The notes under the pieces are model-generated. The model was not told where the DNA came from. It saw nothing but the letters and a program-made list of their open reading frames with translations, and ran no database searches. From Thermoplasmata archaeon (GTDB lineage Archaea > Thermoplasmatota > Thermoplasmata > Lutacidiplasmatales > UBA184), in the NCBI GenBank assembly GCA_022750455.1, contig JAKIVR010000001.1:26270-90269 (forward strand): a stretch of DNA of 64,000 bases, given 5' to 3'. The position numbers were made by a program, and so were the translations under genes. Position 1 is the stretch's first letter. Each line of letters opens with the position of its first letter. Of the stretch, positions 16,151 to 56,966 are shown piece after piece.

Positions 16151-17203
16151 TCAGCCGGCCTCCGGAGTCCGGCCCCCGGGAGCGTGGAGCGAGGACGAAA
16201 GCCAGCGAAGGTACGCGGCGCGCGAGGGGAGGCGCCAGCGCACGCGATAGCTCCGGTCGAGTCGAGGATGGGGGACGGAGAGCGACAGCGTGGAGCCGAT
16301 GCGGCGCAGTCCCTCCGGGCTCTGCGGATCGCGTCCGAGCGCCTCGATCCGGGCGACCTCGGCTGCATCGCTCCGGCTCCCGCTGCCTCCGACCTGGACC
16401 TGCAGGCTCGCCTCGCCGAACGGGTAGCCCGGGGGGAAGAGGAGGCGCATGCGGAAGTGGGCGTCCGGGCTGAACCGGTAGCTGACCCCCGGGCGCGGCT
16501 GCGACGGCTCCAAGAACCGAGCCGATTCGTACCGGGCATCGACCCCCCGCGTCTCGTCCGCCTCGTGCCCTGGCGCCCCGTCCCACATGCGCAGCACCGG
16601 GGGAAATCCGATCTCGAAGGTGTGCCGCACCCAATCCCGGTTGCGGGCGGTAAGCGGCTCTCGATACTCCATCACTTCCATGGGGAGGCCGGAGTCGGAT
16701 TCGTCCGGCGAGACCTGGCGGATCCGGTGAGGATGGGAGCTCCACCAGGTGTGGCAGAGCGCGCCCCCGGGAACGACGATCGGGGCGAACTCGAGCCGGC
16801 CCTGTACCACCCGGGAGGTCGAGGAGAGGTTCGACCAGTACGACCCGTCCGCTTGGACGCTGCCCCACAGCTCCAGCCATTGCCGCTCCAGCACCACGGG
16901 GAACGGGGCCTCCGAGCTGCCCGCCATCGCGTAGGATGCGTCGGCCAGCTGGACAACCTCTCCTAGCTCGACCAAACCGGCGAGGGCGCGGGCGGCCGTG
17001 CGCTCCGAGCCGCGGCGCGCGTCCACGGTCGCGCGCACGAGCTCGCGGTACCGCAGGCGCGGGTGGTCGCGCAGATGGTCGAGGAGGAAGCTCTCGATCT
17101 GACGGGGCGACGCGCTCCGGGGCATCTTCGCCGGGGGATGGGTGTCGCCCTTCAAAGAACCGTAGGTGGCGACGGGACGGCGCGTGGAGGGGGGAGGAAC
17201 CAA
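16151..17203 (-). CDS. Uncharacterised protein, paralog 1: N-terminal winged-helix domain plus an unknown C-terminal domain
   Basis: wHTH segment IESFLLDHLRDHPRLRYRELVRATVDARRGSERTAARALAGLVELGEVV. The C-terminal blocks FRMRLLFPPGYPFG and GLRRIGSTLSLSVPHPRLDRSYRVRWRLP are clearly homologous to the downstream gene. The start may instead be at M27 (17125). Confidence 0.55.
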   Translation of the reverse strand: MVPPPSTRRPVATYGSLKGDTHPPAKMPRSASPRQIESFLLDHLRDHPRLRYRELVRATVDARRGSERTAARALAGLVELGEVVQLADASYAMAGSSEAPFPVVLERQWLELWGSVQADGSYWSNLSSTSRVVQGRLEFAPIVVPGGALCHTWWSSHPHRIRQVSPDESDSGLPMEVMEYREPLTARNRDWVRHTFEIGFPPVLRMWDGAPGHEADETRGVDARYESARFLEPSQPRPGVSYRFSPDAHFRMRLLFPPGYPFGEASLQVQVGGSGSRSDAAEVARIEALGRDPQSPEGLRRIGSTLSLSVPHPRLDRSYRVRWRLPSRAAYLRWLSSSLHAPGGRTPEAG

Positions 17204-17246
17204 ACAAATGGGGAATTGGGATCCCTCCCGGTTTCCCGGGAGGGAT
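17190..17246 (-). terminator. Hairpin (11-bp perfect stem ATCCCTCCCGG-TTT-CCGGGAGGGAT) plus a downstream T-rich tract; terminator of the small Lys-rich gene
   Basis: A perfect palindrome at 17221-17246 is followed on the minus strand by AAUUCCCCAUUUGUUUGG. A second small hairpin, GGGTC-TCGGG-GACCC, lies just before it. Confidence 0.55.
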
Positions 17247-17268
17247 CGAAGGGTCTCGGGGACCCGGT

Positions 17269-17484
17269 TTAGGCGTTCTTCATCTTGGCGCGGGCGATGT
17301 ATCCCTTCTTGTCGAGGAAGTACATGTAGCCGTCAGCGCGAACGATCTTTTCGCTGCCGACCTTACTCTTCCGCCCAGACTTGTTCAGCTTGGTGGGAGT
17401 CTTCCAGAGATACCCGTCCTTCCCGAGGTAGTAGAGATATCCCTTCTCCCGTGTGACCTGCTCCTTCCCGATGCGCTCTGCCAT
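17269..17484 (-). CDS. Small Lys-rich basic protein (about 71 aa) with an internal tandem aromatic repeat, encoded in a low-GC island
   Basis: MAERIGKEQVTREKGYLYYLGKDGYLWKTPTKLNKSGRKSKVGSEKIVRADGYMYFLDKKGYIARAKMKNA contains two GY-x-Y-[YF]-L-x-K-x-GY repeats. The gene has about 55% GC against about 70% around it, with AAG/AAA-rich codons. It lies directly downstream of hutI. Confidence 0.6.
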   Translation of the reverse strand: MAERIGKEQVTREKGYLYYLGKDGYLWKTPTKLNKSGRKSKVGSEKIVRADGYMYFLDKKGYIARAKMKNA

Positions 17485-17528
17485 GTGTGGCGACCTCACC
17501 GACGAGACAGAAGCCCATGTATTTGAAT

Positions 17529-18797
17529 TTACTGACGGAGTTCCGACGTGAAAACGAACTTTCCCTGACGATAAACTTCGACCGGATCGACCCCAATGCG
17601 GCCGGCGATCTCCGCGGCGTGGTGGAGGTCGAACACCGCGAGATCGGCCGGTCCACCGACGGTAATCCGCCCCGATCCGTCGGCGAGGCGGAGGGCGTGG
17701 GCCGCGTTCACCGTCGAGGCGGTGAGCGCCTCCTCGGGCGTCAACCGGGCCGAGTGCACCGCGTGGGCGATCACGAGCGGCATCGACTCGACGTACGAGT
17801 TCGGGGAGAGGTCGGTCCCGAGGGCGACGGCGACCCCGGCCCGGACGAACTCCCGACCCGGGACGGGCCGGTCGACCAGCGTGGCGAACGGCGTCAAGGG
17901 CAGGAGGACGGCGACGACGCCCGCCTTCGCGAGGCGTTGCCGGTCGGCGGCCGGCGTCTGCAGGAGGTGTTCAGCGGAGACGGCCCCGATCTCGGCCGCG
18001 AGCCGTCCGCCGCCCGAGGCGACGAACTCGTCGGCGTGGATTTTCGTGCCGAGGCCGAGCTGCTGCGCGGCTCGCAGGATCCGCCGCGCCGCCGGGACGG
18101 AGAAGAACCCCGGCTCGCAGAAGACGTCGCAGAATCGGGCGAGATGGGCGGAGGCGATGGTGGGAAGGCTGTGGCGGACGATCTCATCGACATACGCCGT
18201 GGCCCGTCCCCGGGCTTCGCGGGGCACGGCGTGCGCCCCGAGGTACGTCGGCACGATGGTCATCGGCTCGGTGGCTTGGAGCTGACGCAACAGACGCAGC
18301 AGACGGAGCTCCCCGCGGGGTTCGAGGGCGTACCCGGTCTTGATCTCGACCGTCGTCGTCCCGTGGCGGCGCAATCGGGCGAGGCGTCCTCGGGCGTCCC
18401 GGAGGAGCTGCGCGCTCGACGCCTTCCGGGTCGCTCGGACGGTGGAGAAGATGCCGCCGCCCGAGGCGGCGATCGATCGGTACGACTCCCCGCGCAGCTT
18501 GCGGCCGATCTCCCGATGCCGGTCCCCGGCGAAGAGGAGGTGGGTGTGGGCGTCGACGAATCCCGGGACGACCAGCCGGCCCTCGAGGTCGTGAGTGCGA
18601 CCGCCGCGCCGCAGCCGGACGGCGGAGCGCGCCTTCCGGGTCGGTCCGATCCAGACGATGCGCCCTCCGTCGACGGCCACGGCGGCCTCCGTCTGCAGAC
18701 CGAGCTCCGACATCGCCGGGCCGCACCGGGGCACCGGACCGCGGTCCAGGGTGGCGAGCTCGCCGATGTGGGTGAGGAGCAGGTCGGCGCGGATCAC
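17529..18797 (-). CDS. hutI: Imidazolonepropionase
   Basis: The run VPGFVDAHTHLLFAGDRHREIGRKLRGESYRSIAASGGGIFSTVRATRKAS...GTTTVEIKTGYAL...YLGAHAVP closely matches HutI conserved blocks. GTG start at VIRADLLL preceded by GGTGA. The 60-aa Gly/Pro-rich N-terminus in the track ORF is spurious. Confidence 0.8.
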   Translation of the reverse strand: MIRADLLLTHIGELATLDRGPVPRCGPAMSELGLQTEAAVAVDGGRIVWIGPTRKARSAVRLRRGGRTHDLEGRLVVPGFVDAHTHLLFAGDRHREIGRKLRGESYRSIAASGGGIFSTVRATRKASSAQLLRDARGRLARLRRHGTTTVEIKTGYALEPRGELRLLRLLRQLQATEPMTIVPTYLGAHAVPREARGRATAYVDEIVRHSLPTIASAHLARFCDVFCEPGFFSVPAARRILRAAQQLGLGTKIHADEFVASGGGRLAAEIGAVSAEHLLQTPAADRQRLAKAGVVAVLLPLTPFATLVDRPVPGREFVRAGVAVALGTDLSPNSYVESMPLVIAHAVHSARLTPEEALTASTVNAAHALRLADGSGRITVGGPADLAVFDLHHAAEIAGRIGVDPVEVYRQGKFVFTSELRQ

Positions 18798-56146: not shown

Positions 56147-56366
56147 GGGTCGGCTTCGTCGGGCGTGAGCTACCGGCTCACGGGTCGACGGCAAAATGGG
56201 GAACTATTATGTACCCCGGTTTCCGTGACCCGAACAAGGAATCCCAGACCCGCCCCCTTCGAGCTGCCCCCGCCAACAGTTGTTGACGAGTTTTGTTCGA
56301 TTCGTGCACAGGTCGAACGATTCCCCGCGAAACAACGCAAAACCGACCAACAGAGAGAAAACGACC

Positions 56367-56918
56367 ATGGTAGACAAACCCCTGACCAAACTGCGCGACC
56401 TAACGCCGAGCTCGAAACAAGTGAACGTCCACGCGAAGGTGGTGAACGTTGGAGAAGGTAAGGAAGTGATGGGAAAGTACGGTGACCCGCGAAAGGTCGC
56501 TGAGGCGATCATCGCCGACGACACCGCCCAGATCATCCTGTCGCTCTGGAACGAACAGATCGGACAGATCGCGAAGGACGATGTCATCCTGATCGACAAC
56601 GGATACGTCTCCCTCGTCCGCGGACACATGCGACTCAACGTGGGCCGGTACGGCTCCATGGCCAAGTCGCCTGACCCGATCGCCGAGGTCAACTCGACGC
56701 TGGACATGAGCCAGCAAGAGTTTGAGTCCGAGCGCCGCTCCTTCGGAGGCGGCGGTGGCGGCGGCGGCTACCGCGGCGGAGGCCGGGGTGGCGGCGGCGG
56801 CGGCTACGGCGGCGGTGGTGGCGGTGGCGGCTATGGTGGCGGCAACCGCGACGGTGGCGGCAGTGGTGGGGGCGGCGGCGGCGGAAGCCGCGAGCGCTCC
56901 GACTACAAGCGCTACTAA
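56367..56918 (+). CDS. ssb: Single-OB-fold ssDNA-binding protein (crenarchaeal-type SSB) with a Gly-rich RGG/YGG C-terminal tail
   Basis: The OB domain VNVHAKVVNVGEGKEVMGKYGDPRKVAEAIIADDTAQIILSLWNEQIGQIAKDDVILIDNGYVSLVRGHMRLNVGRYGSM follows the Sulfolobus SSB pattern. The tail is GGGGGGGYRGGGRGGGGGGYGGGGGGGGYGGGNRDGGGSGGGGGGGS. The start is an ATG 29 codons into the track ORF. Confidence 0.7.
   Translation: MVDKPLTKLRDLTPSSKQVNVHAKVVNVGEGKEVMGKYGDPRKVAEAIIADDTAQIILSLWNEQIGQIAKDDVILIDNGYVSLVRGHMRLNVGRYGSMAKSPDPIAEVNSTLDMSQQEFESERRSFGGGGGGGGYRGGGRGGGGGGYGGGGGGGGYGGGNRDGGGSGGGGGGGSRERSDYKRY
56751..56890 (+). repeat. Low-complexity GGC/GGT repeat tract encoding the Gly-rich SSB tail
   Basis: ggcggcggtggcggcggc... 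repeated. Confidence 0.7.
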
Positions 56919-56930
56919 GTGACAACCTTG

Positions 56931-56966
56931 GGCAGGGACTTCGGTCCCTGCCCTCCTTTCTTTTTT
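56931..56966 (+). terminator. Hairpin GGCAGGGAC-TTCG-GTCCCTGCC followed by a CTCCTTTCTTTTTTCGG T-run, downstream of ssb
   Basis: A perfect 9-bp stem with a tetraloop and an oligo-T tract lies in the 65-bp gap between the convergent ssb and carB. Confidence 0.6.

Follow-up and report, generated by a model that had tools for sequence, protein, structure and literature searches.

The window analysed here, a stretch of 64,000 nucleotides from a Thermoplasmata archaeon (contig JAKIVR010000001.1, positions 26,270 to 90,269), contains a small gene that encodes a basic protein of 71 amino acids (aa) and lies between two genes of the same orientation. Its coding sequence (CDS, 17269..17484, with the stop codon counted in) runs on the minus strand from an ATG at 17484–17482 to a TAA at 17271–17269 and specifies, by the open reading frame (ORF) list and its translation, a product of 8.2 kDa with a pI of 10.0. 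The initial annotation of this DNA had recognized the 71-aa frame, and its translation proved identical to ours residue for residue; only the strand had to be corrected, to minus. We prefer this ATG to a GTG farther upstream at 17499, an unlikely start that would give 76 aa, because the orthologues all begin MAE[RK][IV]G and because a Shine–Dalgarno-like GGTGAGG (17494..17500, minus strand; positions -16 to -10 from the ATG) precedes the ATG.

The protein is rich in Lys, as had been described, and strongly basic: it has 13 Lys and 5 Arg (18 together) against 7 Asp plus Glu, a net charge of about +11, 7 Tyr, 3 Met and 2 Asn. Features of an enzyme, a transporter or a signal peptide were found neither in library scans nor, by eye, at the N-terminus (MAERIGKEQ...).

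Profile comparison identifies the protein as a tandem duplication of a unit of about 35 residues. When profiles built separately from the N- and C-terminal halves of 34 family members were compared with each other by hhalign, 36 columns aligned with a probability of 99.2% and an E-value of 2.6e-19. The two aromatic repeats that had first drawn attention to the gene, GYLYYLGKDGY (residues 15–25) and GYMYFLDKKGY (residues 52–62), are indeed present, and the duplication extends beyond them to span the whole protein. As a consensus, the unit reads approximately [RK]-[IV]-G-x-E-K-I-x-R-E-x-G-Y-L-Y-[YF]-x-x-K-D-G-Y-V-x-R-x-x-M. By hhalign and the strands of an AlphaFold2 (AF2) model, the first unit (residues 1–36; 17377..17484, minus strand) comprises a short strand and the β-hairpin GYLYYL-GKDG-YLWKTP, with model strands at 16–20 and 25–30. 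The second (residues 37–71; 17272..17376, minus strand), delimited by hhalign, AF2 and family alignment A1, comprises the strand KVGSEKI, the β-hairpin GYMYFL-DKKG-YIARAKM and the conserved C-terminus MKNA. The two hairpins are joined by a Lys/Arg/Gly-rich linker, KTPTKLNKSGRKSK (residues 28–41; 17362..17403, minus strand), in which P30, G37 and K39 are invariant, and N34 nearly so, in alignment A1.

The AF2 model, computed from a 30-sequence alignment, is all-beta with a mean pLDDT (predicted local distance difference test) of 90 and a predicted template modelling score (pTM) of 0.69. Its strands occupy residues 16–20, 25–30, 40–46, 53–57 and 63–67, with a short bridge at 3–4, and so make up two strand-plus-hairpin units. 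We therefore predict with confidence that each unit consists of a short strand followed by a β-hairpin of the form G-Y-x-Y-[YF]-x-x-K-x-G-Y, and that the protein is all-beta.

The protein belongs to a large family. A word-indexed search returned 213 relatives; those listed are about 71–74 aa long (a few are longer) and 62–92% identical to the query, all are annotated as hypothetical, and none carries a Pfam domain. An exhaustive hidden Markov model search of 1.84 billion cluster representatives found 669 clusters at 50% identity, 191 of them with E <= 1e-10, and a profile of divergent members extended this to 5,578 clusters at 90% identity. At least 550 loci were found when one genome per GTDB species was scanned. 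Relatives were named from the best 80–120 of several hundred to 5,578 matches, and most are without a name. The sources are uncultured Thermoplasmata (UBA184, UBA61, Lutacidiplasmatales and many metagenome-assembled genomes (MAGs) from soil and peat), and beyond these Micrarchaeota (including ARM-1 and Mancarchaeum), Marsarchaeota, Nanoarchaeota, one Elusimicrobia MAG and MAGs of Methanoregulaceae, Methanolinea and Methanoregula. Among the matches listed, the closest is from JA4.bin57 (96%).

Identity ranges from 57 to 96% over the loci that genomes of Thermoplasmata, Micrarchaeota, Marsarchaeota and Methanoregulaceae yielded, and the median ratio of non-synonymous to synonymous substitution rates (dN/dS) is 0.116 for 819 pairs of 71-aa orthologues. 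These comparisons show that the small gene is real and under purifying selection. The C-termini differ between lineages, being MKNA in all aligned Thermoplasmata and NR[RK]GR[RK] in most Micrarchaeota and Marsarchaeota. Two Thermoplasmata MAGs, JBARHO01 and DATEQS01, have besides the syntenic gene a second copy on another contig (L040 and L041) that is 77% identical to the query.

Multi-domain relatives were found among P0121–P0124, P0139, P0144, P0155, P0184, P0222, P0249 and P0266. Some of the longer relatives consist of two full modules and a C-terminal zinc ribbon, and an 886-aa membrane protein has 4–10 copies of the module. In P0266 we recognized by eye an HNH-like motif, without confirmation by Pfam. 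Taken as a whole, the family is large, archaeal and also virus-borne, and it is without a name, a known fold or a known function.

No family in Pfam, NCBIfam, PHROGs or PADLOC matched the 71-aa protein significantly. When the Pfam scan was extended to E 10, only DUF5050 (E 0.006), DUF3116, CoiA_C and Choline_bind_2 (E 0.57) appeared, all of them below threshold, and among 33 relatives the best match to Choline_bind_2 (E 0.028) was also below the cut-off. Given these scores, and since no signal peptide was seen by eye, we rejected a choline-binding or cell-wall-binding repeat. Foldseek searches with the AF2 model, against the PDB and against BFVD, gave no match with E <= 0.001; the fold, as predicted, is without a solved counterpart. 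The small beta-barrel that had been suggested as one possibility found no support; the all-beta model matched no solved or viral fold.

Nor did the searches turn up homology to a ribosomal or housekeeping protein, which the initial annotation had allowed for as a more ordinary identity, in Pfam, NCBIfam or the PDB sequence searches. Ribosomal chains were absent from the PDB sequence searches, and the few that Foldseek returned, at E >= 0.4 and a template modelling score of about 0.3, are noise. We know of no ribosome structure from Thermoplasmata or Micrarchaeota.

The PDB sequence searches, made with the protein and with profiles A1, A2 and A4, returned only a sub-threshold match to chain 9erw_E and repeat-summed matches to the designed Cake propellers. 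Residues 41–63 of 9erw_E, a 128-aa chain of unnamed function, read KERVGVSCISRTDGYTYYLD and resemble one unit over about 20 residues (E 0.03–0.19, sub-threshold); among solved structures, this chain may be the one most closely related to the hairpin unit. The E-value of 4e-7 for the designed propeller Cake10 arises by adding up nine identical matches, each worth about 5.8 bits, and hhalign against three Cake blades aligned only a 13-residue hairpin, with a probability of 63%.

The likeness behind these matches is a hairpin motif, [DE]-G-aromatic-L-Y-aromatic-hydrophobic-x-x-D-G, that the protein has in common with PQQ-like propeller blades (BamB, 3HXJ and Cake), DUF5050 and choline-binding repeats, which, weak as the likeness is, come closest to it in structure and sequence. 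Unlike propeller and choline-binding repeats, the 71-aa protein is built of two three-strand copies, is highly basic and has no signal peptide. We rejected a PQQ-like beta-propeller repeat, because a unit of three strands in about 36 residues, present twice, contrasts with a blade of four strands in about 40 residues, and the overlap covers 13 residues only. At the level of sequence, then, the family has an aromatic hairpin motif in common with propeller-type repeats and no domain-level homology to them.

The same neighbours bear on a reading in which the protein is not a nucleic-acid binder but a self-associating β-hairpin repeat module that forms a larger beta structure, or docks on a protein or membrane partner, its charge being meant for another polyanion or for an acidic partner. 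The blade-like hairpin, with the Cake score summed over identical repeats, and the weak DUF5050 and choline-binding matches all point in this direction, as do the fusions of the module to transmembrane proteins, M48 peptidase, DoxX and YdcK/bactofilin-like solenoids and its multiplication in the 886-aa membrane protein. The PAC2 gene described below, which stands divergently beside the small gene in 31 Micrarchaeota loci, counts here too. The propeller likeness is, however, confined to the 13-residue hairpin, the strand count of the unit differs from that of a blade, no gene accompanies it as a partner in more than one phylum, and self-association would explain neither why the protein is so extremely basic nor why some relatives have Lys/Ala-rich tails. 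We regard this reading as quite unlikely.

Signals on both sides of the gene are conserved. The Shine–Dalgarno-like motif lies at -13 to -10 in 37 of 39 high-GC orthologous loci and at -10 to -8 in all 41 low-GC loci, and GGTGA is present in 78 of 80. A TATA-box-like sequence, TTCAAATA (17520..17527, minus strand; -43 to -36), is the predicted archaeal promoter and begins one base past the stop codon of the upstream gene (17529–17531), which encodes an amidohydrolase. Across 39 Thermoplasmata loci the consensus of the promoter region, T-c-.-A-A-a-a-a-g-G-g-g-G, is kept and its distance is constant; the Thermoplasmata equivalent of the TATA-like box is T[CT][CT]AAATAGG, at a constant distance from the ATG, and Micrarchaeota loci have cgacgatagATATTTAAA at the equivalent distance.

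At the 3' end, folding predicts a perfect stem-loop of 12 bp, GAUCCCUCCCGG-GAAA-CCGGGAGGGAUC (17220..17247, minus strand), which starts 22 nt past the stop codon and has its arms at 17220–17231 and 17236–17247 around a GAAA loop. It occurs once and is the longest perfect hairpin of the 64-kb window. The 3' region folds at -37.6 kcal/mol (z = -3.1), more stably than all of 200 shuffles, and minimum free energy and centroid structures both contain in addition a minor 5-bp stem-loop, GGGUC-CCCGA-GACCC, directly past the stop codon (17251..17265, minus strand). Ten nucleotides past the hairpin begins an interrupted T-run, AUUUGUUUGG/ATTTGTTTGG (17200..17209, minus strand). A perfect hairpin of 11 bp with a U-tract had been described; the perfect hairpin stands, with a stem one base pair longer, while the U-tract is interrupted, weak and 10 nt away. 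In accordance with this, a scan of 16900–17800 for bacterial-type terminators (a G+C-rich stem followed within 0–2 nt by at least five U in eight) found 0 sites. We consider the T-run a probable archaeal termination signal, judged from its sequence, and a weak one in the copy of the window.

The arrangement is nevertheless a property of the orthologues. In 45 high-GC loci (the orthologues plus the copy of the window), a stem of at least 7 bp was sought in the first 90 nt past the stop codon and was found in 38 (shuffles: mean 11.4, maximum 19); a run of four or more T no more than 20 nt past the stem occurs in 26 of the 45 (shuffles: mean 0.46, maximum 4). The orthologous hairpins differ in sequence and keep the architecture, often with UUCG or GNRA loops, and low-GC Micrarchaeota orthologues have long T-rich runs in place of it. 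This comparison of sequences indicates that an archaeal oligo-T signal with an upstream stem-loop is conserved at the 3' ends. From the conserved motifs taken together, the mRNA is predicted to be monocistronic, to have a leader of about 10–18 nt and to be transcribed from its own TATA-like box about 40 nt before the ATG. Contigs bearing the exact protein or a close relative, checked as possible transcripts, included neighbouring genes and were therefore uninformative about expression. The literature on Micrarchaeota and Thermoplasmata was also searched for later studies and for data on expression, and yielded nothing useful.

The only other strong hairpin-plus-T-run site that we found in the window is at the end of a gene for an Ssb-like OB-fold protein (56364–56918, plus strand; Pfam Ssb-like_OB, E 5.7e-14), whose C-terminal tail of about 60 residues is rich in Gly, Arg and Tyr (GGGGYRGGGRGG...). 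There a 10-bp hairpin with a UUCG loop (56930–56953) is followed by T6 (56961–56966), an arrangement that matches the 3' end of the small gene. These two sites hint, weakly, that the architecture may mark well-expressed nucleic-acid-binding genes in the window.

The upstream neighbour of the small gene encodes a HutI-like amidohydrolase and is itself preceded by genes for RNase Z, DUF169 and the A/V-ATPase. Downstream on the same strand lies a 350-aa ORF (16151–17203, minus strand) with a likely start near 17127 and no Pfam match; judged by eye, the N-terminal part of this ORF (…ESFLLDHLRDHPRLRYRELVRATVD…LAGLVELGEVV) resembles a winged-helix regulator. Scans of the window with Rfam and for tRNA genes found nothing. 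The amidohydrolase gene adjoins the small gene in 36 Thermoplasmata loci. In 31 Micrarchaeota/Marsarchaeota loci (among L004, L005 and L044–L085) the divergent upstream neighbour is instead a gene of the PAC2 family (proteasome-assembly-chaperone-like), with which the small gene has its promoter region in common; no equivalent of it stands beside the small gene in the Thermoplasmata loci. No neighbour is common to different phyla in the loci examined, so that the context names no functional partner. Synteny is thus specific to each lineage, which shows that the gene is inherited vertically within lineages and indicates that it is a transcription unit of its own.

More divergent members (E 1e-13 to 1e-22 against profile A1) are found in contigs that resemble viruses or mobile elements and are rich in small unannotated ORFs. 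One (L088, 10001–10228) neighbours DUF669, HNH, DEAD helicase and ribonucleotide reductase genes, a second (L089, 10001–10225) neighbours RusA, ParB_N, Mom and HNH, a third (L090, 10001–10201) a phage integrase, and a fourth (L092, 1379–1603) has many small ORFs around it. A scan of IMG/VR with close-family patterns found no relatives; it overlooked the virus-borne divergent members because the patterns are specific to the close subfamily.

Such contigs raise the question of whether the gene of the window was itself recently transferred from a mobile element or virus, in which case its low G+C content (GC) would be that of foreign DNA and its function would lie in virus–host interplay. The GC contrast that had been reported, about 55% in a context of about 70%, is real: the CDS has a GC of 0.556 against 0.687 for the window, 13 points lower, and the local profile falls to 0.54–0.58 at the gene between flanks of 0.70–0.76. 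The distribution of the family is patchy as well and includes Micrarchaeota and Thermoplasmata, which form symbiont–host pairs. However, GC at the three codon positions is 0.49, 0.36 and 0.82 (GC1, GC2 and GC3), and correctly framed neighbouring genes have a GC3 of 0.87–0.94. Because the drop sits at the first and second positions and GC3 is near that of the neighbours, we attribute the low GC to amino-acid composition rather than to foreign DNA; the Lys codons AAA and AAG are AT-rich, opposite to the compositional trend of this 69% GC genome. Transfer is further opposed by the constant position beside the amidohydrolase gene in 36 Thermoplasmata loci, by the lineage-specific C-termini, by the empty scan of IMG/VR with close-family patterns, and by the fact that no integrase, repeat or tRNA was found near the gene. 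The horizontal acquisition that had been offered to explain the low GC is thus contradicted by GC3 and by synteny, and a recent mobile origin is, on this sequence evidence, disfavoured and in our view very improbable.

What, then, might the protein do? The initial annotation suggested a highly expressed basic protein of the chromatin- or RNA-binding kind, and from the sequence a basic protein that probably binds nucleic acid remains plausible. Binding to either DNA or RNA is its most likely function. We favour, tentatively and at somewhat less than an even chance, a stand-alone and probably abundant protein that binds nucleic acid without sequence specificity, most likely of the chromatin or nucleoid type, with a role like that of Sul7d or Cren7. 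In such a protein, Lys and Arg residues would contact the phosphate backbone, and the conserved surface Tyr and Trp residues would stack on bases or wedge into the groove. The invariant Lys/Arg/Gly-rich linker and the basic C-terminus supply the net charge of about +11, and the cell would produce the protein in large amounts from a gene that appears to be transcribed alone, with its TATA-like box, short Shine–Dalgarno leader and an end formed by a stem-loop and then a T-run.

Several observations are consistent with this chromatin-type reading. The purifying selection on the gene, the dominance of Lys in so GC-rich a genome, the conserved signals on both sides and the lack of enzyme, transporter or signal-peptide features all count in its favour. 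The close relatives listed, Thermoplasmata, Micrarchaeota and Marsarchaeota sequences among them, are 62–92% identical to the protein, and identity this high is common where a protein's contact is a universal macromolecule. We also count the RusA, ParB_N, Mom, HNH and helicase neighbours in the virus-like contigs toward a nucleic-acid function. Among 331 sampled single-module relatives, 32 have C-terminal tails of 8–30 residues rich in Lys and Arg, often in Lys and Ala (for example ...KAKAKVKAKTKAKAKVKTKAKGKRRR and GHKKKAKAKVKAKTKAKAKVKTKAKGKRRR). In about 10% of the sampled members, then, the end is of the KAKA or KKKK type, and some of these tails resemble, by composition only, the Lys/Ala-rich tails with which histone H1, Hc1 of Chlamydia and HupB of mycobacteria bind DNA; the protein of the window is itself tail-less and ends ...AKMKNA. 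Finally, known nucleoid-associated proteins (NAPs) are usually encoded by single-gene operons, which has served as a criterion in predicting nucleoid proteins (Hocher et al., 2022; PMC7613761), and for that reason we counted the single-gene unit in favour of a chromatin protein.

Other results weigh against this interpretation. Neither Pfam nor Foldseek against the PDB and BFVD revealed a recognized domain or fold for binding DNA or RNA. The module is also fused to M48 peptidase, DoxX, single-pass transmembrane proteins, YdcK/bactofilin-like beta-solenoids and zinc ribbons; these fusions suit a cytosolic module with a generic binding function no less than a DNA binder, and they weaken the case for a strictly chromatin function. 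The family is found, moreover, in Methanoregulaceae, which encode histones, and because of this it is not simply a histone substitute.

The closest functional analogy is with Sul7d (Sso7d/Sac7d) and Cren7, the crenarchaeal chromatin proteins, which are about 60–70 aa long, rich in Lys, mostly beta-sheet, encoded by stand-alone genes and have a pI near 10. The protein of the window is like them in its size of 71 aa, its Lys content, its pI of 10.0, its mostly beta structure, its stand-alone gene and its restriction to particular archaeal lineages. It differs in having no Pfam sequence match (7kD_DNA_binding or Cren7) and no SH3-like fold match, and in being made by internal tandem duplication. 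Unlike the crenarchaeal proteins, its family occurs in Thermoplasmata, DPANN, Methanoregulaceae and viruses. We favour this analogy, and by analogy would predict DNA binding and abundance.

An alternative is that the protein binds RNA, either as an RNA chaperone in the niche of cold-shock and TRAM proteins or as a lineage-specific ribosomal or ribosome-associated protein, its aromatic strands and basic loops holding single-stranded RNA or rRNA. Like CspA and the archaeal TRAM RNA chaperones, it has about 70 residues, five strands in an all-beta arrangement and a monocistronic gene, and its aromatic residues next to Gly (KGYLYYL and DGYMYFL) lie in strands that the ribonucleoprotein motifs of cold-shock domains loosely resemble. 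Conservation on a par with that of ribosomal proteins, the strong translation signals of the gene and the basic tails, which ribosomal proteins bear too, could equally be read in this way. Unlike CspA and TRAM proteins, however, it has no match to the cold-shock domain (CSD) in Pfam and none to an OB or TRAM fold; the cold-shock and TRAM families are patchy in archaea, and E. coli CspA is far less basic. Nor was there a match to CSD, TRAM, Sm, any ribosomal family or a chain of a solved ribosome, and the gene never lies inside a ribosomal-protein operon in the loci examined. The virus-like contexts also speak against it, for they resemble modules of replication or recombination. We consider an RNA-binding role unlikely, and less likely than the chromatin-type role that we favour.

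A point that bears on both comes from work on nucleoid proteins in the wider clade of Thermoplasmata, the Diaforarchaea, at whose root histones and Alba were lost and whose replacements are mostly unknown (Hocher et al., 2022; PMC7613761). That study describes a candidate NAP of Methanomassiliicoccales (WP_019177984.1 and AGI86273.1; 74 and 70 aa) that is Lys-rich, has a pI of 9.6–9.9 and no known domain, is termed a ‘novel fold’, and is encoded by a single-gene operon. Its homologues are in Methanomassiliicoccales, Sphingomonadales and Rhodobacterales, and in M. luminyensis the candidate makes up 1.34% of the proteome with an enrichment in the nucleoid that is only nominal (PMC7613761). By description only, the protein of the window closely resembles this candidate in size, charge, lack of a known domain or fold, single-gene unit and membership of the class Thermoplasmata. 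That so similar a protein is abundant and yet hardly nucleoid-enriched could be taken to favour binding to RNA.

Unlike the published candidate, our family has, among the matches listed, no named relative from Methanomassiliicoccales, Sphingomonadales or Rhodobacterales, and searches seeded with divergent members likewise gave no Methanomassiliicoccales or alphaproteobacterial names among the matches listed. The published length and pI of the candidate matched none of 278 family sequences, and cluster look-ups assigned no taxonomy to divergent members. With the comparison made by description only, we think it doubtful, if conceivable, that the two proteins belong to one family.

If the chromatin-type reading is carried further, the family might be an unrecognized major family of archaeal chromatin or nucleoid proteins, with a new all-beta tandem-repeat fold, that coats DNA in uncultured Thermoplasmata and acts also in Micrarchaeota, in Marsarchaeota, in some Methanoregulaceae and in the viruses of these archaea; conceivably, the abundant ‘novel fold’ candidate of Methanomassiliicoccales belongs to it as well. 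We regard this extended proposal as somewhat unlikely. How DNA is packaged in archaea without histones is nevertheless an open question, for which this family offers a concrete and testable candidate: its members have about 70 residues, are very basic and conserved, number in the thousands, have a predicted fold without match and virus-borne relatives, and in some cases carry H1-like tails. The small size of the protein suits quick biochemical and structural work. Should it prove to bind RNA or protein instead, it would still represent a large, well-conserved family without a known function or fold, from lineages that experimental biology has barely touched.

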